DNA from: Actinomycetota bacterium | Lineage (GTDB): Bacteria; Actinomycetota; CADDZG01; JAHWKV01; JAOPZY01 | NCBI GenBank assembly: GCA_035765775.1 | Contig: DASTWV010000059.1 | Coordinates: 353,555-417,554, forward strand | Reading direction: 5' to 3' | Length of the DNA stretch: 64,000 bases | In this document: positions 1,654-47,177 of the stretch, one piece after another | Numbering within the stretch: the stretch's first letter is position 1 | Layout: each line of letters opens with the position of its first letter | Program-made: the position numbers and the translations under genes | The notes under the pieces: generated by a model | The model's database searches: none | The model's input: the letters and a program-made list of their open reading frames with translations, nothing else | Told to the model about the DNA's origin: nothing

Positions 1654-3290
1654 GCTTAGCCTGGATCCACCGATAGCCTGACCCCACGGCGGCAGGTGCC
1701 ACCGTTGGGAGGCGAGGTGATGATCTGGGCCCCGGTCGCCGAGTTGGACCGGCGTCACGTCGACGTTTGGGGTGACCTGAAGGCCCACAACTGAGCCAAT
1801 TTCATGCCCAGGGCACGGCTGTGGCCCGGAACCTGTCCGGTGGGGCGGGTTGCACCTGCGGTGATCCGGCTCAGGCGAGCAGGGCAATGCCCCGCAGGCG
1901 GTCGAGGCCGGCGGAGAACTCCTCGGCCCAGGGCCAGCCCGACGGCAGGTGCAGGTGCCATCGCCGTGACGAGCGGGTAAGGCGTCCCGGCAGGGTGAGG
2001 AAGCGCCGGCGGATGCTCTGGGCGACCACGGGGCCGACGTGGCCCAGGCCGAGCGAGGCGACCCAGCGGATCAGGTTGTGGGCCAGGGAGGTGATCACCA
2101 GCCAGGCCGAATTGGCCGAGAAGTTGCCCGAGGGGCAGTGGCTGAGCCCCGATCCCTCCTTGAGGTCCCGGATGGCGAGCTCGACGACGGCGTGGCCCCG
2201 GTGCTCGACGCCCAGGGCGACGGCCTCCCCCGGGCGGTTGGTGACGAAGGCGTGGTGGCGCCAGTCAGGCCACAGCTCGGCCTGGTCGCCGATCAGCCGG
2301 GTGCCGCGCACGATCAGGCGGTCACCCTTGTAGCTGGTCTCGGCCAGCTGCGCCTCGCCCATGGCGGTGTAGTCGATGCTCACCCACGATTCCTCGGGGA
2401 TCGTGGCGCTGGCAGCCTGACCGCGGAGTTGGACGGCACCGTGATCGAGTAGCCGATGCGGTGGCGGCGGCACGCCTTGACGAACCTCTCGGACCAGAAC
2501 GCCGAGTCCGCCCGTAGCCGGAGCTCCCCGCTGGAGCCCGCCCGCCGTGCTCGGGCGACGGTCTCGTCCGGGAAGCGCACGCAGCCCCGGGCGCTGGCGG
2601 CCGAGCCTTTGCGCTGGCGCACGTGCAGCACCTCACCGGTCTCGGCCCGGGTGGCCAGTAGCGGGTGGTAGCCGAGCCGGCGGGTGTAGCCGTAGGCGGC
2701 ACCTTGCTTGTGGTAGCCGTGCACCTCGCAGATGGTGGAGTCGAAGTCCAGCATCAGCACCTCCCCGCCCGGTCCCGCCCCCGCCGCCCAGGCCCGGGCA
2801 AGCAGCTTCCCGGTCACCTTGTCGAGCTGGCGAACGTGTCCGAAGCTGAGAGCGCAGGAAGGTGCCGAGCGTCGAGGGGGCCATCACCCGGTGCCCGAGC
2901 ACCGAGGCCGTCGAGGCGCAGCGCAGCACGTCGGCGTCGTCGATCGAGTCGCCACCGGCCAGCATCGAGTGCACCAGGGTGAGCACCTTGCGCCCCGGCA
3001 GGGCAGCCCCGGGGCGATCCCCAAGCTCAACGGTGGCATGCACCAGCTCTTCGATGCCCAGGTGCTGGGCCAAGGTGGCGGGCAGGACCAGCCCGGCGTT
3101 GGCCACCGCGTGGTCGTCGTCGAAGATCACCGACGCTCGGTCGAGGCTGTGGGAAGATGTCACCTGAAAAGTGCCTTTCTGAGTAGGGCGGATGTCGTTT
3201 TCGCAGACACCATTCTCCCTGGTCAGAGGGCATTTTTCGCGTCTATCCGGGCCTCAGATCGGCCGGTTCATCGTGGATCCAGGCTTAGGT
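1654..3290 (-). mobile_element. Degenerate IS1380-family insertion sequence (~1.63 kb) with imperfect terminal inverted repeats
   Basis: Terminal inverted repeats GTGGATCCAGGCT(T/A)AG at ~3274-3290 and its reverse complement at ~1654-1670 (13/13 identical, then partial). They bracket a transposase reading frame that is split into three pieces. Confidence 0.7.
1871..3163 (-). pseudogene. IS1380-family DDE transposase, disrupted by two frameshifts (three consecutive ORF fragments in different frames)
   Basis: ORF 2633..3163 is the N-terminal part (MTSSHSLDRASVIFDDDHAVANAGLVLPATLAQHLG...). ORF 2380..2817 is the core (MLDFDSTICEVHGYHKQGAAYGYTRRLGYHPLLATRAETGEVLHVRQRKGSA, an IS1380-like DDE signature). 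ORF 1871..2473 is the C-terminal part. The three fragments overlap and are in different frames. Confidence 0.75.
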
Positions 3291-3745
3291 CCCGGCAGCA
3301 TGCACTGGTAGGAACCTCCCAGCTGGGCGCATGGGGCACTCCGCGGCCAGCCCGCCGGCTCCACAAGCCATCACCGGCGCACCGCGCGGTGCCCGGTCCT
3401 CCAGAAGCCTCCGCTACCGCTTCTGTGCATCTTCTTCTGCTGGCCGACCCCTAGTCCGGGCGAACGATCCGGGCCTACTGCATTCGCGCCGTCCGGCGTG
3501 GCCCCAAATGGCTCCCCGCGTCCGCCTTCATGTACCAGATTTATTGGTCACTGTGCGGCTGTTCAGACGATCCCATGAGCCCGATATTTGAAGTAGGAAA
3601 CAAGCACCGCCAAAGGCAAACCCTCGGAAACGAGGCGACGCAAAGCTATAGGGCCGTCGATCACAGCGATCACGGCAGCCAGCTACCGGATGCCCGAGAA
3701 ATCCCTCGAGAGTCCGTCCATGTCGCCTCAAGAAAGGAGACGACG

Positions 3746-4603
3746 ATGCGAAGGACCCAGGGCATTCTCACCTCTCTGATTGGTGCTGGATTTGCCATGA
3801 CCCTCACCTTCGGTGCCGCGCCAGCCCTGGCGGCCGGCGCCCCGGCCTCCACCCCCGCTCCGGACGCCGCCAGCACCAACTTCGCCTGGGTCAACTCGCT
3901 CCGGGCGGCCGGCGGTCTGGCGGCGCTGCAGAACCAGCCTTGGGCGCAGCAGGTTGCCCAGGCCCACTCGGACGACATGGCCAACCAGGACCAGCTGTAC
4001 CACAACATGACCGGGTACATGGACGTGGCGCACAGCGCCCTGCACGCTTCGTACCTGGGCGAGAACGTCGGCGAGGGCACAACTCTCGACTTTGTCCAGT
4101 CGCTGCTGAAGGCCAGCCCGGAGCACTACGCCAACATCATGAACCCCCGCTTCAACTATCTGGGCGTCGCTGTCACCATCGATGAAAACGGCCAGGTATG
4201 GGTCACTGAAGACTTCTCCGAGATTGATGGCGGCTCCCCCGCCCCGGCCCCGGCCGCCCGCCCGGCTGCAGCCATCAAGCCGGCAGTGGCACCAGCCCCC
4301 AAGCCGGTGGCGCCCCCTGCCCCCAAGCCGGTCGTCGCCCCTGCCCCTGTCATTGCCCCGGCTCCGGTGTTCCCGGTCCCCACCGTCGCAGCACCGACCC
4401 CGCCCCCGGCTGCCCCGGCTTCTGAGCACGCGGGGGTCACCACGATGACCATTGCCCACCATGGCCAAGCGGATGCCGCCGCCAGCCGCACCGGCGCAAG
4501 TAACCCCCAGGGTGGCCTCCTGTACGCCGGGCTCCTGGCCGCCGGCTGCCTGATGGCCCTGGGCGGGGGCTTCAAGATCTTCACCGTGTTCTCCCGCAGG
4601 TAG
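3746..4603 (+). CDS. Secreted CAP/SCP/PR-1-domain protein (paralog) with a Pro/Ala-rich linker and a C-terminal hydrophobic anchor
   Basis: ATG at 3746 preceded by AAGGAGA. Signal peptide MRRTQGILTSLIGAGFAMTLTFGAAPALAAG. CAP motifs (SDDMANQDQLYHN; YLGENVGEG; PEHYANIM; YLGVAVT; WVTEDF). PAPKPV repeats, then ...NPQGGLLYAGLLAAGCLMALGGGFKIFTVFSRR. Confidence 0.8.
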   Translation: MRRTQGILTSLIGAGFAMTLTFGAAPALAAGAPASTPAPDAASTNFAWVNSLRAAGGLAALQNQPWAQQVAQAHSDDMANQDQLYHNMTGYMDVAHSALHASYLGENVGEGTTLDFVQSLLKASPEHYANIMNPRFNYLGVAVTIDENGQVWVTEDFSEIDGGSPAPAPAARPAAAIKPAVAPAPKPVAPPAPKPVVAPAPVIAPAPVFPVPTVAAPTPPPAAPASEHAGVTTMTIAHHGQADAAASRTGASNPQGGLLYAGLLAAGCLMALGGGFKIFTVFSRR

Positions 4604-4779
4604 CGGGACCAGCCTCCCCGATGCTTGGTCGATAAAACGCTCCGGAGCCTCGGGCCCTAGGGTCCGGGGCTCCGGTAATTTTGTCCCCAACCGCCCTAGG
4701 GAAAACAGGGGTTACCCCACCACCTACGTGCTCGGGTCAGGAGAGCACGTAGATGCGAAAGAGGGACCCGGCTGCGGAA

Positions 4780-5466
4780 TTATCGGTGCCGCTTTCTCAT
4801 GACCTTCGGCCCGTCCTCAGTCATCTGCAAAATGCCTTGGCGCACGGCGATCGCCGCCGCCTCGAGTTTCGAGTGGGCCTCCAGCTTCGTCAAGATGGCT
4901 TGGACATGTTTGCGTACGGTGTTGACGCTCAAGAACAATGCCTCAGCAATTGCCGCGTTGTGCAAGCCTCGGGCCATGAGTTCCAGCACCTCGAGTTCCC
5001 GGTCGGTCAAGCCGTATGACACTTGCTGATGCTCCCGGCGCAGCCGGGGGAGGAGCCGCATGAGCAGCTCGGGCGGGATGAGGGTCTCCCCCACCGCGGC
5101 AGCCCGGACGGCGGAGAGGGCGTCCTCCACCAAACCCACCTTGGAGATGAAGCCGGAGCACCCGACCTCGATGGCATGGACCAACGCGTTGTCGTCGGCG
5201 TACGCGGTCAGGATGACCACTTTTGTCGCCGGGCACTCGGCCCTGATGTCGGCCGCGGCATCGATGCCGGCGCCATCGGGCAGCTGGTTGTCCATTAGCA
5301 CCACATCGGGGTGGAACCGGGCGGCCATATGTCGGGCGTCCGCCGCGGTAGCCGCAGCGCCGACGACCTCGAGATCGCTCTGGTCCCGGAAGACCCGGAT
5401 GAGGGTCTGCGCGAACATCTGGTGGTCGTCAACAACGAGCACCTTGATTACGCCCTGCTCGCTCAT
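4780..5466 (-). CDS. NarL/LuxR-family two-component response regulator (REC + HTH_LuxR)
   Basis: VLVVDDHQMF...VVLMDNQLPDGAG...ILTAYADD...FISK (REC domain); LTDRELEVLELMARGLHNAAIAEALFLSVNTVRKHV (LuxR HTH). Likely start is MSEQG at 5466; the ORF-track N-terminal extension is probably not translated. Confidence 0.85.
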   Translation of the reverse strand: MSEQGVIKVLVVDDHQMFAQTLIRVFRDQSDLEVVGAAATAADARHMAARFHPDVVLMDNQLPDGAGIDAAADIRAECPATKVVILTAYADDNALVHAIEVGCSGFISKVGLVEDALSAVRAAAVGETLIPPELLMRLLPRLRREHQQVSYGLTDRELEVLELMARGLHNAAIAEALFLSVNTVRKHVQAILTKLEAHSKLEAAAIAVRQGILQMTEDGPKVMRKRHR

Positions 5467-6433
5467 CAATCGATCCCCTCCGTTCGTCGCATTCTGGTGC
5501 ATCCCCGCTCGCCGGCGGTACTCCATGGCGCATGGGCGACGGCGACCGTCACGGCAGACCAGCGGTCAGCGGAGGCCCTGTAGCAGGCGCATCCCCCATC
5601 CAGGGTTCCTTCTCGCGCAAGCACCGGCTGCGCATATCCGGACATAGTAGACTACCTAGCCGCAAGCACGACGGATCCAGCTGCGGTAGTCCCACCTCAG
5701 GGCGACGCCGCCCGGCGGCGGACACGAGGGCGGGGGTTCCCCCCCATGGCGCAGGAGCGGATCTCCCTCCCGGAGGGAGCCGGGCACGTACCTGCGATCC
5801 GCCCTGAGTACTGGTGGCGCACCAGATGGGCAAAGGTGTCATCGAACGCCACCGGCGTTTCGGGATCGGTGGCTGCACAGGAATAGAACGGGGCGATCCA
5901 CAGCAGCACACCCTGGGCGGTCATGTTGCTGGATATAGACCTCTTCAACCCGACGATTGGGTCGATGGAACATTCATGTGCCTGGACGTACCTGTGAGGA
6001 TGACCTGGCATGATGAGTTCAGCATATTATCAGGTCATCAACCAGTTTGAGCGCAGCGCCGAGGACGTCCGCCAGCACCTCCCTGACCGGCCGGCGTCGG
6101 ATCGGAGGCCATGGTCCCCCGCCAGGACGGCAACGCCGACCGGGACCGCACTGAACGCCGAGGGAGCGACAGCACGTAGCGAAGCCAGAACGCCGCCAGC
6201 ACGGCGTCCACGGACGCCACGTCGGACACCGCGCAGACTGCGCCCCAGGCTGCCTAGAATGCGGGCCGGAGCTGGTGCCGGGCCGGATGCCGGGCCCCAC
6301 CACCAGACAGGGGGACGCGAGCCCGGTCTGTAGGCCCGGGCTCGGCATCCACAGCGCCAGGTCCCAGAACGTCGAGCGCGTCCGCCTCGGCGTGGCCGCC
6401 CTCGCCGCATCATGGCCCCCGCCTGCCGCCCGG

Positions 6434-8659
6434 CTACCCCGGCCCGCCCATCCAGAGGGGTTGGCCGAGGGACGGGGCGGCCGGTGCAGATGGTCGGTGC
6501 TGGACCACCAGTTCGGTCACGTCTTGGAAGACGCCGGTCAGGGCCGGCGTGGCACCGGGGTTCGCGTCCAGCTCCACCCGGCACGAGAGCCGCCGTTGAG
6601 TGCCGTCGGGCCGGACGAAGCGGCAGGCGAAGTCGACCACCCCGCCCCGGGCGGCGCTATCAATGGCGCTGACCACCGCCGGGAGGTCATCGGGGTGGAC
6701 GATGCTCAAGAAGTCATCGAAGGACGCGGCTGTACCCACGGGAAATCCGGCGATCCGGCGCAGCTCGTCGGAGAACCAGCCAGCGCCCCGCTCCGGTTCC
6801 CAGCGGCAGCTCCCGGCGTGGGTCATCGCCTCGGTCAAGTCTAGGTGCCGGGTCCGCTCCCGGTACGCTGCCTCGACGCGTTGGCGGTCCAGCACCCGGG
6901 CCAGCTCGCTGGCAAAGCCGTCCAGCACCACCAGCAATGACTCGTCGGGCATCTCAGACTGCATCGAGAAAAACTCAAGCACGCCGAGAGTCCGGCCCTC
7001 GAAGGCGAGCGGGATCCCAAAACCGGCCTGCAGGCCCGCCGCCACCGCCTGCGCTGAGCGGGCGAGCCGGGGGTCGAGTTCCAGATTGGCCATCAGCACG
7101 CGTTCCCCCGCCTCCAGCGTCCTGCCCGGCAAGCCCACCCCGGGGCCGAAACGCAGCCCGGTCGACGCCCTTCGGAAGGCGTCGAACTGCGCCCCGGCGG
7201 CCAGGTGCCAGATTGCGGTGCTGACCAGCTCTCCGTCGCCACGCGCGTCGCCACCCGTGTCCCCACCTGCTGGGCCGACCGCTGGCTCACCGGTGAGCAG
7301 GCAGGCGTGGCCCACGGGCCAGCCGGTGTAGAAGCAGATGCGCTCCAGCGCCAGGTGCAGGGCCGCCTCGACGCTGCCCGCCGAACCCGCTTCGATGGCG
7401 GTTCGCAGGAGCGCGATCTGGGTGTTCTTCTCGCCTAGCCCGACCAGCGGAGGGCCCAGATCCCCCCCTCCGGGAGCTCCGACATAGCGGGGGTACATCC
7501 CGCTGGGCGGCGGCGGCGCCGGTCGGCCCAGAAGGTAGCCCTGGCCCCAGATGACACCCAGGGTACGCAGGGCGCCGGCCTGGGCGAGGGTCTCGATACC
7601 CTCGGCCACGAGGGTTGCCCGGGTCTCGCCGGCAAACGAGATCAGCGCGGCGGCCAGCGCCCGGGCCTTCTCATCCACGGTGACCCGCTGGACGATGCTG
7701 ATGTCCAGCTTGATGATGTCCGGCTGCAGGCGCAGGATGTGCCGGAAGCTGGCGTAGCCCGCCCCGGCGTCGTCCACCGCCACCCGCGCACCCCGCGCCC
7801 GGAGTGGCCGCAGCGCCGCCATCAGCTCGTCGTAGTCCTCGATGGGGTCGTGCTCGGTGACCTCGATCACGAGGCGCTCGGGCGCGATCTCGTCCAGCAG
7901 CGTTCGGGTCCGGGGCTCCAGGATGGCCCCGGGGGATATATTAACCGAGATGAACAGTTCGGGAGACAGTGCATGGGCGGAGACCACCGCCAGCGACACC
8001 GCGGCGCGCTCGAAGGCCTCCCCCAAGCCCACCGACGCCGCCTCGGCCAGCCAGACGTCTGGGCCCCGGCGGGGCTCCCCCTCCACCCGAAGCAGGGCTT
8101 CCGCGCCCACTGCCCAGCCAGCACGCAGGTCCACGATCGGCTGGAGCTGGACCCTCGACCAGCCCTCCTGCAGCGCCTTGGTGACCCGCCCGATCTGCTG
8201 TGACCGTCGTTCCGTTTCGATTGTCTGGGCCTGGGGCATCCCGGCCAGTGACTCGATGAGGACCTCGGCGACCTCGGCGGACACCGACCCCTGGTGCCGA
8301 GCACCCCGGTGGATGGCCGCCAGGATCTGCTCGGCACTGGCACCCTTCACCAGGTAGCTCCGGGCGCCAGCGCCCAGCATCGCCAGGATGGTGCGCCGGT
8401 CCGCGTAGGCGGTCAGAGCGATGATGTGGGTACTGGGGCACAGGCGGGAGATCTGTGCCCCCGCCTGCACCCCCCCGCCCGGCATCCGGACGTCCAGCAA
8501 CGCTACGTCGGGCTGATGGAGCAGGGCCAGATCGACCGCCTCCGTGGCGTTGACCGCGGTGGCCACCAGAACCAGGCTCAGGTCGCTTGCCAGCACCGCC
8601 CTGAGGGCAGCGAGCACGATCGGATCGTCATCGGCGACGAGGACCCGGATGGCACTCAC
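6434..8659 (-). CDS. Multidomain c-di-GMP phosphodiesterase: REC - EAL - GAF - PAS
   Basis: GTG start at 8659 (VSAIRVLVADDDP...) overlaps the upstream gene's stop (GTGA). REC: DVALLDVRMPGGG...IIALTAYADR. EAL: QPIVDLRAG...EVTEHD...DDAGAGYASF...KLDISIV...AEGIETLAQ...GQGYLLGRP, with catalytic residues present. GAF: LGVLEFFSMQ. PAS: FLSIVHPDD...FACRFVRPDGTQRRL...FQDVTE. Confidence 0.85.
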   Translation of the reverse strand: MSAIRVLVADDDPIVLAALRAVLASDLSLVLVATAVNATEAVDLALLHQPDVALLDVRMPGGGVQAGAQISRLCPSTHIIALTAYADRRTILAMLGAGARSYLVKGASAEQILAAIHRGARHQGSVSAEVAEVLIESLAGMPQAQTIETERRSQQIGRVTKALQEGWSRVQLQPIVDLRAGWAVGAEALLRVEGEPRRGPDVWLAEAASVGLGEAFERAAVSLAVVSAHALSPELFISVNISPGAILEPRTRTLLDEIAPERLVIEVTEHDPIEDYDELMAALRPLRARGARVAVDDAGAGYASFRHILRLQPDIIKLDISIVQRVTVDEKARALAAALISFAGETRATLVAEGIETLAQAGALRTLGVIWGQGYLLGRPAPPPPSGMYPRYVGAPGGGDLGPPLVGLGEKNTQIALLRTAIEAGSAGSVEAALHLALERICFYTGWPVGHACLLTGEPAVGPAGGDTGGDARGDGELVSTAIWHLAAGAQFDAFRRASTGLRFGPGVGLPGRTLEAGERVLMANLELDPRLARSAQAVAAGLQAGFGIPLAFEGRTLGVLEFFSMQSEMPDESLLVVLDGFASELARVLDRQRVEAAYRERTRHLDLTEAMTHAGSCRWEPERGAGWFSDELRRIAGFPVGTAASFDDFLSIVHPDDLPAVVSAIDSAARGGVVDFACRFVRPDGTQRRLSCRVELDANPGATPALTGVFQDVTELVVQHRPSAPAAPSLGQPLWMGGPG

Positions 8660-9834
8660 GCCGGGGCAGCGCGGGGAATTCGGGTGGGAACCCAGCAGGC
8701 GACCGTGGTTCCCGCCCCGGGTGAGGAAGTGATTTCCAGGCGCCCCCCACACACCTCGGCCCGATCCCGCATGGAAGTGAACCCGTAGTGGCCCGGCGAT
8801 TCCGGCGCGGCTTCCGCCTCGAAGCCGGTGCCGTCATCGGCGATGACCAGCCCGAGGCCCTGTCCCTGCTCGCGCAGGCCGATGGTCACGTGGCGCGCCC
8901 GGGCGTGCTTAGCGACGTTGACCAGGGCCTCCTGGGCCACCCGGTAGAGGACGACCAGGATCTCAGGCGGCGGGGCGGTGCCCACCTCGATGGCCACCGT
9001 CGCGGCAAAGTCGGCCTCGCGGCCCAGGATGGCGCCCAGCTCCTCCAGGCTGCCGGCCAGGCCGTCGAGATCCGGAGGGGCGGGGCGCAGCACGAACAGC
9101 ATCCGGCGGAGCCGCCGGATGGCAGTCTGCACGGCGGCCTGAAGCTCGTCCAACTCCTGGAGCTGGTCCTGCCCGTTAAGGGTCATCCGCAGCACACCCA
9201 GCCGCAGCGCCACCGCCGCCATCACCTGGACCGAGTCGTCATGGATGTCGGCGGCGACACGCCGCGACTCCTCCTCCTGGGCCGAGACCAGCCGGCGGAC
9301 CAGCTCGGCCCGCTGGGCCTCCACTGCCCGCAGCTCACGTGCCAAATCCTGGCGGGCGCTGTCCATGGCCTCGGCGTCCGCTCCCCGGTCCAGGGCTTTG
9401 GCGTTCAGGAGGGCCACGGGCTCCTGGTGGTAGTCGTCCGGGTCCCCTCCTTGGGTCGGCAGAGGCCCGCGGCGCAGGGCGGCCTCCACGGACTGCAGGA
9501 TTTCCATGGGGCCGGTGGCCTTGGTGAGAATGCCCGAATAGCTGAGATTTCCGGCTAGCCGAGCCACCTCCTCCGTGGAGTCGGTCGCGGAGTAGAACAG
9601 GAATGGGGTGGCGGCGGTCTCGGCCCGCGCCCGCAGGGCGCGCAGGAGGCCGTAGCCGTCGAGTGTCGGCATGAGGATGTCGCTGATCACGAGGTCAGGG
9701 GCCTCGGCGGCCACCCGTTCGAGCGCTTCGGCGCCGTCGGTGGCCCAGACCACCAAGTGCCCAGCCGACGGCAGGATGCTGCCCAGCAGGGCCCGGACTT
9801 GCCGGGTATCGTCCACCACCAGGATGGTCCCCAC
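8656..9834 (-). CDS. Hybrid histidine kinase with no sensor domain: N-terminal REC + HisKA_3 + HATPase_c
   Basis: Likely GTG start at 9834 (VGTILVVDDTRQ...ISDILMPTLDGYGL...FLFYSA, REC domain). HisKA_3 H-box: EESRRVAADIHDDSVQ. HATPase: LYRVAQEALVNVAKHA...ADDGTGF...GFTSMRDRAE...GAGTTV. The ORF-track N-terminal extension (to 10395) is GC-frame noise. Confidence 0.8.
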   Translation of the reverse strand: MGTILVVDDTRQVRALLGSILPSAGHLVVWATDGAEALERVAAEAPDLVISDILMPTLDGYGLLRALRARAETAATPFLFYSATDSTEEVARLAGNLSYSGILTKATGPMEILQSVEAALRRGPLPTQGGDPDDYHQEPVALLNAKALDRGADAEAMDSARQDLARELRAVEAQRAELVRRLVSAQEEESRRVAADIHDDSVQVMAAVALRLGVLRMTLNGQDQLQELDELQAAVQTAIRRLRRMLFVLRPAPPDLDGLAGSLEELGAILGREADFAATVAIEVGTAPPPEILVVLYRVAQEALVNVAKHARARHVTIGLREQGQGLGLVIADDGTGFEAEAAPESPGHYGFTSMRDRAEVCGGRLEITSSPGAGTTVACWVPTRIPRAAPA

Positions 9835-9839
9835 GCCCG

Positions 9840-10454
9840 CTACTGGCCGGCGAGTTCGGTGTGTGCCGGGGCGGAGGCGAAGATGCCGGGCACATGCCCG
9901 TCCTGGTCCTTGAAGACGTCGACATGTAGGGAAACCAAGCGCTCCTGGCCCTGGCGGGTGCCCAGGATCGACTCGTCGTTGGTCATCCCCCTGCTCCAGC
10001 GTGAGCCGGACCCCGCGCCGGGGGCGCCTGGGGTCGGTGAATTGGGAGGGCGAAACGGCGACCCGGTCACCCCGTCCCGGGTGTAGCCGGACACGCGGCG
10101 CATCGTCTTGTTCACATCGCTGATGGCCAGCGGGGAGTCCACCGTGATCAGCCCGTGTAGGGAGGCCTCGATCAGCCCTCGGTTGCAGGACTCCGACTCG
10201 CGCCGCTGCTGCTCGCTCAGCGAGCGCGTGCAGTACTGCGTGGCCTTCAACGCCTCGGTGAGGCGCACCTCCTCGAAGATGTCCCGCGAGATGAGCAGGG
10301 ACCCCATGGGGTTCGCCGAAGGGTCGCGGTGGGGGGCCTTGACCTCCGCCTCGGCTGGGTCGTATCCATACAGCCGGCGGGCGCCCTCGTTCCACCGGAG
10401 GTTCTGGGCCTCAAGATCGCTGGCGCTCATGGCGTAGGGGGCCTTGATCGCCAA
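9840..10454 (-). CDS. Stand-alone PAS-domain sensor protein (two PAS-like segments, no output domain)
   Basis: LRWNEGARRLYGYDPAEA...; SLHGLITVDSPLAISDVNKTMRRVSGYTRDGVTG...FKDQDGHVPGIFA, typical of PAS. The stop (TAG) lies 6 nt upstream of the GTG of the REC-kinase gene. Confidence 0.6.
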   Translation of the reverse strand: MAIKAPYAMSASDLEAQNLRWNEGARRLYGYDPAEAEVKAPHRDPSANPMGSLLISRDIFEEVRLTEALKATQYCTRSLSEQQRRESESCNRGLIEASLHGLITVDSPLAISDVNKTMRRVSGYTRDGVTGSPFRPPNSPTPGAPGAGSGSRWSRGMTNDESILGTRQGQERLVSLHVDVFKDQDGHVPGIFASAPAHTELAGQ

Positions 10455-10602
10455 CAGGCAATGCCGCCCAGCGGCGTCGGGAACGCCCGCAGAGGTCCGG
10501 TGGGCGAGGGATCCAGACGAATAGTTAGGTGAGCCACGGGCGCTCCGGTGCCGTCATTTTGCTTTAGGAAGTGATAGTGACACATGGTCGTCTTGCCGTC
10601 GA

Positions 10603-11472
10603 GTGCGAAACGGGCGACGGGTTGCGCAGCTGCTCCGGGAGCGGGACAATCCTCCAGGGGAGAACCGGCGCCTGGGCAGGCGCACCGTTGGCGCACTGGA
10701 GCAAGGCGTGGCCTGCGTGCTTGTTGTGGAGGATGACCCGGCCAGCGCGGAATTGGTCGGCTACCTCATACGGGGCGCCGGGCACCGGCTGTCGGTGTGC
10801 ACCAGGGGCTCGGATATGGCCGGGGCACTTCGGACTGACCCGCCGGATCTCATCCTGGTGGACCAGCACCTGCCCGACATGGACGGCGTGCAGGCCCTCA
10901 CCTTGCTGCGCTCGAACCCGGCAACCCCGGACGTGCCGGTCGTGGCCCTCACTGCCGCTGCCCAACCGGAGGACCGGGCACGGCTACTGGCGGCGGGATT
11001 CGACGACTACCTCGCCAAGCCTATCGAGCCCACCAGCTTCATGCGTTCCTTGGACCCCTACCTCGCGCGGTCCGGCCGGCGGCCCGAAGGCTTGACGGCG
11101 GACGGCGGCGGGCCCGGCGCACCGGTGCGGGACGCGGAATCCGCGGCCGTGCCGGCCTACCTGATAGGGGTCTGGTGGGAGAGCCTGGAGGCCATCCTGA
11201 GCCGCCTCGGCCGGTTGAAGGCCGCCTCCACGGCAGCGTCCGAGGGGCGCATCTCGCCGCCCCAGCGCAGCGAAGCGGAAGCGGAAGCGCACAAACTGGC
11301 CGGGGTGCTGGGGACCTTCGGTCTCGGGCACGGGAGCCACCTGGCACGGGATCTCGAAGGGCTCCTGGGCGGGGTCAGCCCCTTGGAGGGAGAGGCGGCC
11401 AGCCACATGCGCACGCTGGTGGAGGAGCTGGAGGCCGAAATCCGCCGCGGGCCCCGAGCCAGAGCGGAATGA
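10603..11472 (+). CDS. Response-regulator receiver fused to a histidine phosphotransfer (HPt) domain
   Basis: REC: VLVVEDDPASAELVGYLI...LILVDQHLPDMDGVQ...VVALTA...DDYLAKP. HPt-like C-terminus: EAEAEAHKLAGVLGTFGLGHGSHLARDLEG. An alternative GTG start near 10699 is possible. Confidence 0.7.
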   Translation: MRNGRRVAQLLRERDNPPGENRRLGRRTVGALEQGVACVLVVEDDPASAELVGYLIRGAGHRLSVCTRGSDMAGALRTDPPDLILVDQHLPDMDGVQALTLLRSNPATPDVPVVALTAAAQPEDRARLLAAGFDDYLAKPIEPTSFMRSLDPYLARSGRRPEGLTADGGGPGAPVRDAESAAVPAYLIGVWWESLEAILSRLGRLKAASTAASEGRISPPQRSEAEAEAHKLAGVLGTFGLGHGSHLARDLEGLLGGVSPLEGEAASHMRTLVEELEAEIRRGPRARAE

Positions 11473-11681
11473 TCCACCACCGGCGGGTCCTGCGGTGGCA
11501 GCTGGGCTGCCGGGGAAAGTGGAGTGCCCGGGGCGCCGAGGCGACGGCCGCGCAGGGACAGGCCCGGCGTCGGGCGCCGGAGGTTCGGGACGGCGGACCA
11601 AACCAGCTCGCGAACCGCCCGCACCCCGAGGCCCGGGAGTGCTGCGGCCGGCGTGGGGGAACGGGGTGGCATGGTGACCCA

Positions 11682-12233
11682 TCAGGTGACCGGTTCGGTT
11701 GCCGGGCTCGGGCCGAGAGGACTGTGCTCCCGGGACCCGACTGCCCGCCTGCCGGTTGCAGGGGCTCGTGCTGCATTCGATGACTCCGCCGGTGCATGCT
11801 CGCGGGAGGCCTGTGCCGGGATCACCACCACCGGGCAGCCGGCGTGATGCAGCACGCCCTTGCTGACCGACCCGAGCACCAGGCCGGCAACTGCCCCGAG
11901 CCCGCGGGTGCCGACCACCAGCAGCTCCGCACCCCGCGCGGCCTCCAGCAGCGCCTGGACCGGCGGGTCCTGAATCAGTACCTGCTCCACCTCGACGCCG
12001 GGTTCTGTCACCCATTCCCGGCTCCGGTCAAGGGTTTGCCGGGCCACACCCTCCACGAAGGACCAATCGACCGCTTCCCCCACCGCATCGGCCAGCCCCA
12101 AGGCCGCCGGAAGGTGCCAGGCGTGCACCAGGACGAGGCGGTCACCGCGCAGCGCGGCCTCATGGGCAGCCCATTGCACGGCTCCGAACGACTCTGGCGA
12201 CCCGTCAACGCCCACTACGATCCTGCCCATCAC
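11682..12233 (-). CDS. Universal stress protein (UspA family)
   Basis: MMGRIVVGVDGSPESFGAVQWAAHEAALRGDRLVLVHAW...LLVVGTRGLGAVAGLVLGSVSKGVLHHAGCPVVVIP. Confidence 0.85.
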   Translation of the reverse strand: MMGRIVVGVDGSPESFGAVQWAAHEAALRGDRLVLVHAWHLPAALGLADAVGEAVDWSFVEGVARQTLDRSREWVTEPGVEVEQVLIQDPPVQALLEAARGAELLVVGTRGLGAVAGLVLGSVSKGVLHHAGCPVVVIPAQASREHAPAESSNAARAPATGRRAVGSREHSPLGPSPATEPVT

Positions 12234-12510
12234 ATGTCCTTTCGCGCGTCCTGTGTCCTCGTTTTCATCGTCCCTTCCTTGCTCTAGTCCTTACTCTGGC
12301 CCTCCTCGTGCCGCGGTCTGGCACTTTCCGGCGGCCCGCCAACCATCATCAGCTGGAGACCTCCAACCCGATACGGCAGTTCGGCCTCCTTTGCGGAGGC
12401 CACCTGTCCTAAAAGTTCGGGCCGACCAGCCCTGGTGGTCGTCCCTGCGCTGGGCGCACACTCCCAGAAGGAACAGCTGCCACCGCCAGACCACGAAAGG
12501 AACCCAGACG

Positions 12511-13032
12511 ATGGACACACCCGACGACCTCCACCTGGCCCTCCACCACCCGGCCCTCGGCCCCGGATCGCTGGCCTGGTCGGACGACCACGATGAGCGC
12601 CAGTGGTGGCACATGCACACCAGCGGCATCCCGGGGAGCACACCGCCGATCCGCCGGCCTCGCGTTCTCCTGGAGATGCCCGGAGTGGCCCTGCCGGCTA
12701 CGGTGGCCACGGTCCTGCGTGACCAGGGCTACGACGTCACGGTCTGCGGGGGCCCGGCGGATACCGCCTTCGGCTGCCCCCTCATGAAGGGCCTGCGCTG
12801 CCCGATGGCGGATCAGGCAGACGTGATCATCGACGACCTCGGACTGACAACCATCGAAGGGCGGGCCGTGTGGCAGGGCCACGAGGCCACCCACCCGGGC
12901 ACGCCCCGGATGCTCCTGCGGGGCATCGGCGACCCGCCGATCAGGATCCGACCGGGGCGGGAGATGCTGTTCGGGCCTCTGACCCGCGAGACGCTGCTGG
13001 AGGCCGTCGGGCGGTTGGCCAACGCCGGCTGA
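12511..13032 (+). CDS. Hypothetical protein
   Basis: ATG at 12511 preceded by GAAAGGAAC. The sequence has coding-like composition (MDTPDDLHLALHHP...VLLEMPGVALPATVATVLRDQGYDVTVCGG...). I recognise no family. Confidence 0.4.
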   Translation: MDTPDDLHLALHHPALGPGSLAWSDDHDERQWWHMHTSGIPGSTPPIRRPRVLLEMPGVALPATVATVLRDQGYDVTVCGGPADTAFGCPLMKGLRCPMADQADVIIDDLGLTTIEGRAVWQGHEATHPGTPRMLLRGIGDPPIRIRPGREMLFGPLTRETLLEAVGRLANAG

Positions 13033-13035
13033 GCC

Positions 13036-14148
13036 TCAGGCCAGGACGGCGGCTACGGCCCGGGCGATCTCGAGATCCTCACGGGCGGCGACCACGAGAG
13101 TGCGGACGGCGATGCCGGGCGGCGCGACATCTCGGTCCCCGGTCCCACTCCGGTTGGCGGCAGGATCGACGGCTACGCCCAGAAACCCGAGGCCGGCCGC
13201 TGTCTGCTCCCGCACAACGGCGGAATTCTCCCCGACGCCTCCGGTGAAGACGAGGGCGTCCAGGCCCCCGAGACTGGCTACCATCGCCGCGATCGAGCCT
13301 CGGAGGCGGTGCAGGTAGACCTCCAGCGCCGCACGCTCACGGCCGGAGCCAAGACGCGCCCGCTCGACGATCCGGGCCATGTCGGCGGTGCCGGCCAACG
13401 CCTGGAGGCCGGAACGGCGCTCCAGGGCGTCGGTGAGGTCCGCCGCGGACAGCCCGCCGTTGGTTTGCAACCACAGGAGCAGCCCCGGGTCGACCGTGCC
13501 CGCGCGGGTCGCCATCACCAAGCCCTCGAGGGGGGTGAAGCCCATCGTGGTGTCGACGGAGCGTCCCCCTGCCACCGCGGCCAGCGACGCGCCTGCCCCC
13601 AGATGGCAGGTGACGATCCGCAGTCCGGCCAGTGGCCGGGCCATGATCTCGGCGCTCCTGCGGGCGGCGTAGGCGTGCGACAGACCGTGGAACCCGTACC
13701 GCCTGATCCCCCAGCGCTCCCGCCAGGCATCCGGGAGGGCATAGGTGGCGGCCGCCGGGGAGAGGGTGGCGTGGAAGGCGGTGTCGAAGCACGCCACCGA
13801 AGGGCACTCTGGCAACCCGGCGCGCAGGGCGTCGATCGCCGCCAGGGCCGGTGGCTGGTGCAGCGGGGCGAGGGCAACCAGGTTCCCAAGTTGCGCCCGG
13901 ACCCTGTCATCAACGCGCACGGGCTTCGTGAATTCCGGGCCACCGTGCACGACGCGGTGCCCGATCGCCTCGGGCGACGCCGATGCAGCCCACCGGACGA
14001 GCTCGGCACTCTCGGCAGCCGCGGGAGCGAGATCGGTCCGGCCCGCCACGCGAGCGCCGTCGAGGATCCGCAGCTTGAGGCTGCTAGATCCGGCATTCAC
14101 CACCAGGACCCGCACCGCCGCGCGTTGCCTTACCCAGGCCAGACCCAC
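13036..14148 (-). CDS. ackA: Acetate kinase
   Basis: [12 protein letters not shown]; HRVVHGG; CFDTAFH; RYGFHGLSH; [11 protein letters not shown]. The start overlaps the 3' end of the phosphoketolase gene. Confidence 0.9.
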
Positions 14149-16547
14149 TCGCGGATGTCGGGCGGATCTTCGCCCTCCCGGTGAGCGTAGGCGCGGGCGA
14201 GTGCCCGGGCATCGACCATGCGCTGGCGGACATCGCCGGCCCGGGAGTTGAGTCCCGGCACCCGGTCGATCACATCCATGACGAGGTGGAAGCGGTCCAT
14301 GTCGTTCAGCATCACCATGTCAAACGGCGTCGTGGTGGTGCCCTCCTCCTTGTAGCCCCGCACATGCAGGCCGAGGTGGTTTTCCCGCCGGTAAGCCAGG
14401 CGATGGATGAGCCAGGGGTAACCGTGGTAGGCGAAGATCACCGGGCGGTCGGGGGTGAACACCGACGTGAACTCCACGTCGGTCATGCCATGCGAGTGCT
14501 CGGTTGGCGGTTCCAGGCGCATGAGGTCCACGACGTTCACGACCCGCACTTTGAGTTCGGGCAGTTCCCGGCGAAGGAGGTCGACTGCGGCCAGGGTCTC
14601 CAGGGTGGGGATGTCGCCGCAGCAGGCCATCACCACATCGGGATCCTGGACACCGCGGCTGGCCCACTCCCAGATCCCAATGCCGCGGGCGCAGTGCAGG
14701 ACGGCGTCGGGCATCGACAGCCAGTTGAGCGAGGGCTGCTTGCCGGCGACGACCACGTTCACGTAGTCCCGGCTCCGCAGGCAGTGGTCAGCCACCGACA
14801 GGAGGCAGTTGGTGTCGGGCGGGAGATAGACGCGGATGACGCCCGCCTTCTTGTTCACGACGTGATCGATGAACCCCGGGTCCTGGTGGGAGAACCCGTT
14901 GTGGTCCTGGCGCCACACATGCGAACTGAGCAGGTAGGTGAGGGAAGCGATCGGGCGCCGCCAGCCCAACCCGGCGGACACCTTCAGCCACTTGGCATGT
15001 TGGTTGAACATCGACTCGACGATGTGTATGAAGGCCTCATAGGAATTCAGCAGGCCGTGGCGCCCGGTCAGGAGGTAGCCCTCCAACCACCCCTCGCACA
15101 GGTGCTCGGACAGGACCTCCATCACGCGCCCGTCCGGGGCGAGATGGTCGTCTCCTGGCTCGATCCGGCCATCGAAGGCCCGGTCGGTGGCCTCGAACAG
15201 CGCGGTCAGGCGGTTGGACGCCGTCTCGTCGGGCCCGAAGACCCGGAAGCGGTCCCGGTTGGCGGACACCACGTCGCGCAACCACTGCCCCAGCACCCGG
15301 GTCGGTTCGCTGGTTGAGGCACCGGGGGCGGTGACCTTCACCCCGTAGGACCGGAAATCAGGCAGGCTGAGATCATGGAGGAGCAGCCCGCCGTTGGCGT
15401 GGGGATTGGCCCCCATCCGGCTGCTTCCCGACGGGGCGAGGGCCGCCAGCTCGGGGCGGAGGGCGCCGGCGGCGTCAAACAGCTCGTCCGGGCGGTAACT
15501 GTGCATCCAGGCCTCCAGGGCCGCCAGCTGGACGGGGTTGCTCCGAACGTCGGCCAGGGGGACCTGGTGCGCCCGGGAGGTGCCTTCCATCGGCTCACCG
15601 TCCACGGTTTTGGGGCCGGTCCAGCCCTTTGGCGTGCGGAGGATGATCAAGGGCCAGCGCGGCCGGTGCCGGTCACCGTCCCGGGCCGCCTGCTGGATGG
15701 CCCCGATGTCATCCAGGGCGGCGTCGAGGACCGCAGCCAGGTCGCGGTGTACCTGAAATGGGTCGCTGCCCCCCACCACAAGCGGCCGGTACCCGTATCC
15801 CGTGAAAAGGGCGTCCAGCTCCGAGTCCGGGATGCGGGCCAGCACGGCAGGATTGGCGATCTTGTAGCCGTTGAGGTGCAGGATGGGCAGCACCGCGCCG
15901 TCGTGGGCTGCGTCGAGGAACTTGTTGCTGTGCCAGCTCGCCGCTAGGGGACCGGTCTCGGCCTCACCGTCGCCCACGACGCAACAGGCGATGAGGTCGG
16001 GGTTGTCGAGGACTGCCCCGTAGGCATGCGCCAGGCTGTAACCCAGCTCGCCCCCCTCATGGATCGATCCCGGTGTCTCGGCGGCGACGTGGCTGGGGAC
16101 CCCTCCGGGGAAGGAGAACTGGCGGAAGAGCCGTGCGAGCCCAGCCAGGTCGCGGCTCACACCCGGGTAGATCTCCGAGTAGGTCCCCTCCAGGTAGACA
16201 TTGGCGACCATCGCCGGGCCGCCGTGGCCCGGCCCGGCGATGTAGATCATGTTGAGCCCCCGGGCGCGGATCACCCGGTTGAGGTGGGCGTAGATCAGAT
16301 TCAGGCCCGGTGTTGTCCCCCAGTGCCCGAGCAGCCGGGGCTTGATATGCGCGGGCTGGAGCGGTTCCCGGAGCAACGGATTGGCGAGCAGGTAGATCTG
16401 GCCGACAGCGAGGTAGTTGGCCGCCCGCCAGTACGCATCCAGCAGCCGCAGATCCGTACCGGCCAAGGCGTCGTCGACGGATGGAGACCCCGAGCGACGC
16501 TGGCCGGGGTCGTCGCGACCGTGAGTCATTCCTGCATCCTGACGCAT
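14130..16547 (-). CDS. xfp: Xylulose-5-phosphate/fructose-6-phosphate phosphoketolase
   Basis: [24 protein letters not shown]...[10 protein letters not shown]...GPGHGGPA...[15 protein letters not shown]...[11 protein letters not shown]...[10 protein letters not shown]...[11 protein letters not shown]...[16 protein letters not shown], about 805 aa. Start at M(RQDAG)MTHGRDD, ~16547 or 16529. The 1020-aa ORF-track extension is spurious. Confidence 0.9.
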
Positions 16548-16676
16548 ATCGGCTCTGGGCGCGAATGGGTCCGGGGGGCCCGGGGAAAGGGGCCGTTCGG
16601 CCCCTGACTCGCACATGGGGGAGGAGTAGCTTCCGGTGGCGCAAGAACTATCGCCCGGCAATGAAAGGGGAGTGCC

Positions 16677-17255
16677 ATGCAACGCCAGAAGATTGACCGC
16701 ATCGTCTCGTGGATCGGCGTCCTGATGACCGCTGCCCTGGTGGGTTCCAGCGCGCTGCTGCTGTGGGGAGCCGCCTTCGTGGACCACCAGATCCATAATC
16801 AGCTGGCGACGCAAGAGATCTTCTTCCCGGCTGCAGGCAGCGCCGCCCTGGCACCCAAGACGATCGGGCCCTACCTGGACCGCTACGCCGGCCAGCAATT
16901 GGTGAACGGGGCCCAGGCTGAGGCCTACGCAGACCACTTTATCGCCGTGCACCTGAGCGAGGTGGCCAAAGGCCAGACCTATGCCCAGGTGAGCGCGGCC
17001 GCGCAGGCGGACCCCACCAACACCACCTTGACCAATGAGGTCAACACCCTCTTCAAGGGGGAGACGCTCCGCGGCCTGCTGCTGAGCGCCTATGCGTGGT
17101 GGCGGGTGGGGCAGCTGGCTCTGATCGCAGGGCTGGTCGCCGGTGTCCTGGCCGTGGTGATGGCTGCCCTCTCCATCCTGGGGTTCTGGCACCGCCGGCA
17201 GGTCCTTGTCGAAGCCGTGGATGTCGCCGCCCGGCCTGTGGCCGCGGCGGTGTAG
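16677..17255 (+). CDS. Hypothetical membrane protein (N- and C-terminal transmembrane segments)
   Basis: Hydrophobic segments [26 protein letters not shown] and [25 protein letters not shown] flank a soluble loop. No homology recognised. Confidence 0.45.
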
Positions 17256-43389: not shown

Positions 43390-46323
<2,934 letters not shown>

Positions 46324-46454: not shown

Positions 46455-47177
46455 CTACTTGATATCGAGAAGGCGCTCCCGCACGGCGTAGACGACCGCC
46501 TCCATGCGGGAGTGGAGGTGCAGCTTCTCCAGGATGTTGCGGACATGGTTCTTCACGGTGTTCTCGGAGATGTAGAGCTCCTTGGCGATGTCCCGGTTGT
46601 TGTGGCCCCGGGCCACCAGCTTGAGGACCTGCAGCTCACGCTCGGTGAGGCGGGGGGCGGGCACCCCGGAGCGCTCGTCGGAGCGCTTCACCATCGAGGC
46701 GAACTCGTTCAGCAGCTTGGAGGCCATCGAGGGTGAGATCAGCGACTGGCCGGCGTTGACCGCCCGCACCGCATTGGCCACCTCCTCGATGGAGATCTCC
46801 TTGAGCAGGTAGCCCGACGCCCCGGCCTTGATCGCCTCGTAGAGGTCCGCTTCCTCATCGGAGATGGTGAGCATCAGGATCTTGGTGTTGGGCAACGTCT
46901 CCTTGATGGCCCGGGTGGCCTCCAGCCCGGAGCGCTTGGGCATGCGGACGTCCATCAGGACGACGTCGGGGACGGTCTCCTCGGCCTTGGCCACGGCGTC
47001 GGTGCCGTCGCCGGCCTCGCCGACCACCTCGATGTCCTTCTCTACCTCGAGGACCATCTGCAGGCCACGGCGGAAGAGGGCGTGGTCATCGACGATGATC
47101 ACGCGGATGGGCTCGCTCAAGGGATCGGCCCCCAGCGCGGCGACGTCCTCGACTTCTTCCGGCTCTTCGCTCACCAC
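46455..47177 (-). CDS. NarL/LuxR-family response regulator (orphan; REC + HTH_LuxR)
   Basis: IRVIIVDDHALFRRGL...VVLMDVRMPKRSG...ILMLTISDEE; LTERELQVLKLVARGHNNRDIAKELYISENTVKNHV. Sits between hpf and secA. Confidence 0.85.
   Translation of the reverse strand: MVSEEPEEVEDVAALGADPLSEPIRVIIVDDHALFRRGLQMVLEVEKDIEVVGEAGDGTDAVAKAEETVPDVVLMDVRMPKRSGLEATRAIKETLPNTKILMLTISDEEADLYEAIKAGASGYLLKEISIEEVANAVRAVNAGQSLISPSMASKLLNEFASMVKRSDERSGVPAPRLTERELQVLKLVARGHNNRDIAKELYISENTVKNHVRNILEKLHLHSRMEAVVYAVRERLLDIK

Follow-up and report, generated by a model that had tools for sequence, protein, structure and literature searches.

A gene pair encoding a receiver-bearing HisKA_3 kinase and a REC-EAL enzyme in an uncultured actinobacterium, and its possible place in a kinase cascade

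A stretch of 64,000 nucleotides from an uncultured actinobacterium (GenBank assembly GCA_035765775.1, contig DASTWV010000059.1, positions 353,555 to 417,554; ~70% G+C), here called the window, contains a cluster of signaling genes that includes a histidine kinase and a putative cyclic di-GMP (c-di-GMP) phosphodiesterase. The conserved unit is the gene pair encoding these two proteins, a REC-HisKA_3 kinase and a REC-EAL enzyme, and not the whole cluster. The reading that we favor, with moderate confidence, is that the kinase would be gated by its own receiver domain and fed by an upstream donor, with the translationally coupled REC-EAL enzyme as its partner and a LuxR-type regulator as a branch; the phosphotransfer steps of this model are all ones that we infer. 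An earlier note on this DNA had proposed a linear His-Asp-His-Asp relay through a separate REC-HPt protein. The clustering of the receiver genes is not chance, since four of the five REC genes in the window fall in a span of 6.7 kb, leaving a single one for the other ~57 kb. Domain calls were made with Pfam profiles, and they returned REC-GerE, REC-EAL-GAF-PAS, REC-HisKA_3-HATPase, REC-HPt, and universal stress protein assignments at the positions that the note had given. It had announced seven signaling genes in the cluster, although its own list counts six.

Conservation and composition of the kinase-EAL gene pair

The stop codon of the kinase gene and the start codon of the EAL gene overlap by 4 nucleotides (GTGA, 8659 to 8656), which is read directly in the sequence and agrees with the earlier description. 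The same 4-nucleotide overlap recurs in related loci (L002, L004, L089, L085/86, L087, and L088). The kinase and the EAL enzyme each have a family of full-length relatives, and the two genes travel together. Among 79 loci retrieved from species-representative genomes by EAL alignment, 39 have a HisKA_3 kinase core immediately upstream of the REC-EAL gene, and the upstream kinase carries an in-frame N-terminal receiver in 9 of those 39. The hosts of related loci are uncultured Actinomycetota, Gaiellales, Acidimicrobiales, Dormibacterota, and Chloroflexota. Conservation across related genomes, which the note had suggested checking, was thus found for the kinase-EAL core but not for the cluster as a unit. 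In tblastn searches, no homologue of the neighboring PAS open reading frame (ORF) was found near related kinase-EAL pairs, and no universal stress protein was found beside them but for one weak match 5 kb away in L022. A literature search gave nothing specific to this gene pair, which is apparently widespread and undescribed.

Some variation was seen around the pair. The output enzyme is a REC-REC-EAL protein in L088 (3887-5518), and two further variants, P0150 and P0185, are REC-GGDEF-EAL proteins; their contigs, of lengths 4113 and 4372, are the same sizes as those of the REC-kinases P0248 and P0244, a hint that they are paired with these kinases in the same manner. Downstream of the EAL gene in the closest relative, L002, a tyrosinase and a receiver-less GAF-GerE regulator (4149-5084 and 5264-6352) replace the REC-GerE gene.

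The kinase is a soluble protein of 392 amino acids with no membrane segment and no sensor domain. Pfam places an N-terminal receiver at residues 4 to 116, followed by HisKA_3 and HATPase domains, confirming the earlier view of a kinase without a sensor of its own. Lacking a C-terminal receiver and an HPt domain, it is neither a hybrid kinase nor a BvgS-like unorthodox sensor, and its core is of the HisKA_3 and not the HWE type. The acceptor of the receiver is Asp52, and the phosphorylatable histidine of the DHp domain is His198, in HDDSVQ (residues 198 to 203), which conforms to the HisKA_3-type motif H-[DE]-x-x-x-Q. In an alignment with the two closest relatives, D8/D9, D52, and K105 of the receiver, His198, N306 of the N-box (EALVNVAKHA), and the G-box residues are all invariant. 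A REC-kinase that begins at the receiver and has no PAS domain is the architecture common to ~17 full-length relatives. Against solved structures, the kinase core matched DesK best, and VraS also, and the receiver gave its best matches to PhoP, RssB, and CheY.

The REC-EAL-GAF-PAS architecture of the partner enzyme was likewise upheld by Pfam. The acceptor of its receiver is Asp56, and its EAL domain has the complete catalytic set: EALLR, N240, E266/E269 (EVTE), D296/D297 (DDAG), K317, E353 (EGIE), and Q373 (QGY). This set is invariant in six full-length relatives of 43 to 55% identity, and the note's statement that the catalytic residues are kept is confirmed. Residues 3 to 383 align with RocR across the REC and EAL domains, and alignments were also obtained with TBD1265, YahA, and VraR. 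Together with the LuxR regulator and the REC-HPt protein described below, the kinase and the EAL enzyme are full length with every catalytic or acceptor residue intact, and the acidic pocket, acceptor Asp, Thr/Ser, and Lys are kept in all four receivers. Judged from sequence, the kinase, HPt, and EAL components look catalytically competent.

Receiver classes and the outputs of the kinase

A NarL/LuxR-type response regulator with a receiver (Asp59) and a GerE helix-turn-helix domain, both recognized by Pfam as the note had it, lies 970 nucleotides downstream of the EAL gene. Its strand, which the note did not state, is the minus strand, the same as that of the EAL gene. Because of the 970 nucleotides between them, the two genes are not demonstrably in one operon. 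In the gap itself (5467-6433), no gene was called, and neither a Pfam-positive ORF nor an Rfam match was found; a patch at ~5900-6050 is conspicuously AT-richer and is possibly the regulator's own promoter region.

The matches to solved structures and the pairwise alignments divide the four receivers into two groups. The LuxR regulator matched VraR, DevR, DesR, and NarL, and the receiver of the EAL enzyme matched VraR, Rv1626, and RocR. The receiver of the REC-HPt protein matched PleD, PhoB, DivK, and the receivers of hybrid kinases. The pairwise score was 174 for the EAL and LuxR receivers and 133 for the kinase and REC-HPt receivers, versus 75 to 82 between the groups. By these sequence comparisons, the EAL and LuxR receivers belong to the NarL class and the kinase and REC-HPt receivers to the PhoP/CheY/PleD class. 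The usual partners of HisKA_3 kinases are NarL-class receivers, as in DesK-DesR and VraS-VraR. On this ground, the most plausible direct partners of the kinase are the EAL enzyme and the LuxR regulator, rather than the REC-HPt protein. We consider direct phosphotransfer from the kinase to the REC-EAL enzyme likely, and the LuxR regulator a probable second output. Of 46 kinase-EAL pairs, only 5 have a complete REC-GerE regulator at a distance of 3.5 kb or less; such a regulator adjoins the pair in L004 and L089, which are among the closest relatives, as well as in L085/86 and L088.

The REC-HPt protein is encoded divergently from the kinase operon, and Pfam recognized both of the domains that the note had assigned to it (10603/10708-11472, plus strand). 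Its receiver has the acceptor Asp52, and its HPt domain, scoring 30.7 bits against a cutoff of 24.6, has His195 in AHKLAG. In an alignment with four REC-REC-HPt proteins, this histidine is invariant and falls on their phospho-His. An AlphaFold2 (AF2) model predicts a REC fold followed by four helices, the second of which carries His195. A fold search with the HPt portion of the model gave nothing significant (best E = 1.4), with HPt and CheA P1 domains near the top, and a search with the full model was dominated by receiver domains and was uninformative for the HPt. Among 5.8 billion clustered proteins, no close full-length homologue was found, the next matches extending over the receiver only, at no more than 38% identity. 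When all stop-to-stop ORFs of 89 related loci were scored with an HPt profile, only the window and its duplicate among these loci, L001, matched; the profile was built from five sequences and is of small size and limited sensitivity, so that distant HPt domains could be missed.

These results bear on the relay of the earlier note, in which a PAS-informed HisKA_3 kinase would phosphorylate the receiver of the REC-HPt protein, and His195 would then pass the phosphoryl group to the REC-EAL enzyme and the LuxR regulator. The gene content for a His-Asp-His-Asp relay is indeed there: each of the four types of module is represented, its acceptor residues intact, and the genes are adjacent and divergently transcribed. 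HPt domains are also known to phosphorylate NarL-class receivers in the Bvg, Evg, and Rcs systems. The route from kinase through REC-HPt to REC-EAL did not stand up as well as the gene content. The receiver of the REC-HPt protein is not of the NarL class, unlike DesR and VraR, the partners of the HisKA_3 kinases that the core matched. The kinase's own receiver is N-terminal and does not follow the transmitter, and the only other candidate intermediate would be this REC-HPt receiver of the wrong class for a HisKA_3 kinase. Furthermore, many genomes in which no HPt was found keep the kinase-EAL pair, with its translational coupling, the REC-HPt protein has no co-conserved relatives, the supposed PAS sensor is damaged, and the N-terminal receiver of the kinase would be left without a role. 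We regard this linear route as improbable.

The input to the kinase and the decayed PAS gene

The genes upstream of related REC-kinases suggest what the N-terminal receiver may be for. PAS-HisKA-HATPase-REC hybrid kinases lie upstream of the REC-kinase in L022, L041, and L087, with two in L087, and a PAS-HisKA kinase with two single receivers lies there in L088. A similar PAS-HisKA kinase is just downstream in L034, and L090 has a divergent PAS-PAS gene upstream. Experiments on the REC-kinase ExsG show that an upstream kinase, BphP1, phosphorylates the N-terminal receiver and thereby inhibits ExsG, and that the target of ExsG itself is ExsF, not its own receiver (PMC3899027). In light of the upstream sensor kinases in relatives and of the ExsG precedent, we think it reasonably probable that the receiver serves as the input to the kinase. 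If so, the system as a whole would be a cascade of kinases, as opposed to a single linear relay.

In the window, that upstream position is occupied by the PAS ORF, whose stop codon is 5 nucleotides from the kinase start. In a search of 1.84 billion representatives, its best matches were repeat units of very long multi-PAS proteins, one of which (P0362) ends in HisKA-HATPase. Compared with P0364, P0362, P0366, and P0419, the first PAS domain lacks ~50 core residues, with a junction near 10343. The linker between the PAS domains is a chimera of both linker types of the homologues (…LTEALKATQYCTRS followed by LSEQQRRESESCNRGLIEAS…), with a junction near 10223. A profile of 44 homologous PAS units, scored against all frames, showed that the frame of the ORF matches positions 1 to 51 and 72 to 115 of the second PAS domain, whereas positions 52 to 71, reading SQFTDPRRPRRGVRLTLEQG at 9988-10047 on the minus strand, are found in the kinase's frame only. 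This frame switch indicates two compensating frameshifts flanking the 20-codon segment, the downstream one at a G5 run. What had been taken for a PAS-only sensor is thus a degraded fragment with an incomplete PAS fold, and its sequence marks it as the damaged remains of a gene for a multi-PAS sensor. It lies at the position that an intact sensor kinase holds in relatives, and it looks like the remnant of one.

Two other explanations of this ORF were rejected. The first, that the PAS ORF and the kinase are a single frameshifted gene, is at odds with the ~17 relatives in which a PAS-less REC-kinase begins at the receiver; the frame of the kinase does continue without a stop as far back as 10395, but between the end of the in-frame PAS segment and the receiver it is not PAS-like. 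The second, that the frameshifts are assembly errors, is improbable in view of an independent Logan assembly (SRR25158471), identical over 10.6 kb, and of the intactness of the neighboring genes, although the two assemblies may draw on shared reads.

The damage to the PAS gene could also mean that the locus as a whole is decaying, its upstream sensor kinase destroyed and the remaining genes either heading for loss or no longer regulated by phosphorylation. The deletion, chimeric junction, and two frameshifts fit such decay, as does an ORF at 1871-2473 (minus strand) that is probably a transposase fragment, its DDE_Tnp_1_4 match covering profile positions 305 to 431 of 435 only, and an intact IS4 transposase lies ~600 nucleotides upstream of the REC-kinase in L004. 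Against this, the kinase, the EAL enzyme, the LuxR regulator, and the REC-HPt protein have the full lengths and intact residues noted above, and no frameshifts were seen in the neighboring genes. Decay of the whole locus is accordingly very unlikely in our estimation.

In the receiver-gated model that we favor, an upstream donor would phosphorylate Asp52 of the kinase, whose receiver would then gate kinase activity. The kinase would autophosphorylate at His198 and transfer the phosphoryl group to the NarL-class receiver of the translationally coupled REC-EAL-GAF-PAS enzyme, modulating c-di-GMP hydrolysis, and the NarL/LuxR regulator would probably accept it as a second, transcriptional branch. 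The donor in relatives would be the PAS-HisKA (hybrid) sensor kinase just upstream, which here appears to have decayed. A candidate donor in its place is the REC-HPt protein, itself perhaps fed by a kinase encoded at some other place in the genome; it is the only candidate donor to the kinase receiver within the 64 kb. Transfer from His195 of the HPt to Asp52 of the kinase, for which the evidence is the adjacency of the genes, is a tentative suggestion that we would not press. The fullest form of the idea is a three-tier cascade, with a relay whose end point is a kinase and not a regulator, in which an unlinked sensor kinase, or acetyl-phosphate made by the products of the neighboring phosphoketolase and acetate kinase genes, would feed the REC-HPt protein, His195 of this would feed the N-terminal receiver of the second kinase, and this in turn the EAL and NarL-type outputs, the kinase-EAL pair being an undescribed and widespread c-di-GMP module of uncultured Actinomycetota, Dormibacterota, and Chloroflexota. 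In its entirety we consider it rather doubtful.

A simpler view is that the REC-HPt protein, the universal stress protein, and the PAS ORF are bystanders. The kinase and the REC-EAL enzyme, with or without the LuxR regulator, would then make a plain two-component system, an unlinked kinase would feed the kinase receiver, and the REC-HPt protein would serve another pathway. That the kinase-EAL pair alone is conserved, and that homologues of the HPt, universal stress protein, and PAS ORF were not found in related loci, would fit this view. So would the finding that the three upstream regions compared (operon/REC-HPt, LuxR gene, and universal stress protein gene) share no inverted repeats of the kind expected of an operator. 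Set against it are the divergent arrangement of the operon and the REC-HPt gene around a control region of ~250 nucleotides, such pairs often being coregulated, and the common class of the REC-HPt and kinase receivers, which fits a single upstream pathway. In addition, a kinase with a receiver as its only input needs a donor, and the window offers no other. We judge the bystander view to be unlikely, though deserving of attention.

Several observations weigh against the receiver-gated cascade itself. The REC-HPt protein appears unique to this lineage, with no counterpart found in the related loci, and its adjacency could be coincidental. The upstream partner of the pair is variable: directly upstream in five of the related loci, namely L027, L031, L042, and L069 (~7700-8700) and L044 (2004-2726), there is no kinase but an OmpR-type regulator (REC plus Trans_reg_C), as called by Pfam on L069 and from shared motifs in the translations of the other four. 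An upstream HisKA kinase is absent throughout the 64-kb window. The membership of the LuxR regulator is uncertain, considering the rarity of a NarL-type regulator beside related pairs and its distance from the EAL gene here. Lastly, transfer from an HPt to NarL-class receivers is established in Roc systems, so the linear route is chemically possible.

Related systems, neighboring genes, and biological meaning

The earlier note knew of no named system with this architecture, but two named analogues exist. In Pseudomonas aeruginosa, the unorthodox sensor RocS1, which contains an HPt, interacts with the helix-turn-helix regulator RocA1 and with the REC-EAL protein RocR (PMC3083521); the Pvr/Rcs system is built in the same way, its sensor PvrS requiring an external HPt (PMC2696094). 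In both, as in what the genes described here may encode, there is an HPt step and a branched output, with a DNA-binding helix-turn-helix regulator on one arm and, on the other, a REC-EAL phosphodiesterase whose action reduces c-di-GMP (PMC3083521, PMC2696094). The likeness to Roc1 extends to the alignment with RocR over the whole REC-EAL region and to the companion REC-GerE regulator. However, RocS1 is a single membrane-bound, BvgS-like chain of transmitter, receiver, and HPt, while the window kinase is soluble, of HisKA_3 type, and has its receiver at the N terminus. The HPt is here on a separate REC-HPt protein, the EAL enzyme has additional C-terminal GAF and PAS domains, and the host is an uncultured actinobacterium. 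The logic of a relay leading to an EAL enzyme is already known from Roc and Pvr/Rcs, and the signaling chemistry is not of a new class.

ExsG, from Rhizobium NT-26/Agrobacterium, is comparable in that an N-terminal receiver is fused to a kinase core, and relatives of the window kinase likewise have a sensor kinase gene just upstream. It differs in its HWE-type core, hexameric state, and single-domain regulator output, as opposed to a HisKA_3 core and an EAL-enzyme output, and in the window the upstream kinase is missing, with a relic in its place. The DesK-DesR, VraS-VraR, DevS-DevR, and NarX-NarL systems share the HisKA_3 core and an adjacent NarL-class receiver partner. Their kinases sense via membrane, GAF, or PAS domains. 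For the window kinase, a receiver is the sole input, and the cognate partner encoded beside it is an enzyme where those systems have a transcription factor.

The features of the cluster are collected in Table 1. A promoter scan found no sigma-70-like sites, and an Rfam scan of 4400-13100 returned only a chance microRNA match (E = 0.1), with no riboswitch in the 970-nucleotide gap between the EAL and LuxR genes.

Table 1. Features of the signaling gene cluster, in coordinates of the window
Feature	Position	Strand	Evidence
NarL/LuxR response regulator	4780-5466	minus	Pfam Response_reg 81.5, GerE 63.1 bits
REC-EAL-GAF-PAS predicted c-di-GMP phosphodiesterase	6434-8659	minus	Pfam Response_reg 71.8, EAL 155, GAF_2 39.4, PAS_3 33.1 bits
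REC-HisKA_3-HATPase histidine kinase	8656-9834	minus	Pfam Response_reg 70.5, HisKA_3 37.7, HATPase_c 44.9 bits
PAS relic ORF	9840-10454	minus	PAS_4 26 bits; no stretch passes alone
Out-of-frame 20-codon segment of second PAS	9988-10047	minus	44-unit PAS profile, all frames
REC-HPt	10708-11472 (other starts 10603, 10717)	plus	Pfam Response_reg 82.8, Hpt 30.7 bits
Universal stress protein	11682-12233	minus	Pfam Usp 102.9 bits

The universal stress protein gene is convergent with the REC-HPt gene, as described before; a link between it and the signaling system is not supported. Between it and an acetate kinase gene lies an ORF at 12253-13032 on the plus strand (12511-13032 in L001), of 173 to 259 amino acids and without a Pfam match, which may be a lineage-specific protein or a spurious high-G+C ORF. 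The acetate kinase gene (13036-14148, minus strand) and a phosphoketolase gene (XFP_N/XFP/XFP_C; ORF 14130-17192, minus strand), the true start of which is probably ~230 codons into the ORF, lie beside the cluster. These two enzymes make and consume acetyl-phosphate, a small-molecule phosphodonor for receivers. On the other side, the transposase fragment is flanked by two genes of the CAP/cysteine-rich secretory protein family (620-1549 and 3530-4603, both plus strand). A second NarL/LuxR-type regulator is found at 46455-47177 (minus strand), immediately upstream of secA (43390-46323), and is an orphan, since the rest of the window yielded no histidine kinase.

If the receiver-gated model is true, c-di-GMP breakdown would be controlled by a kinase that is itself the target of phosphorylation. 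Such an arrangement can invert, delay, or integrate signals, and it has been shown biochemically for few REC-kinases, ExsG being one example. The kinase-EAL pair would offer a defined, soluble, and easily purified system in which to study the gating of a HisKA_3 kinase by a receiver and the control of an EAL enzyme through phosphorylation of its receiver, and it comes from phyla for which there are almost no experimental data on signaling.

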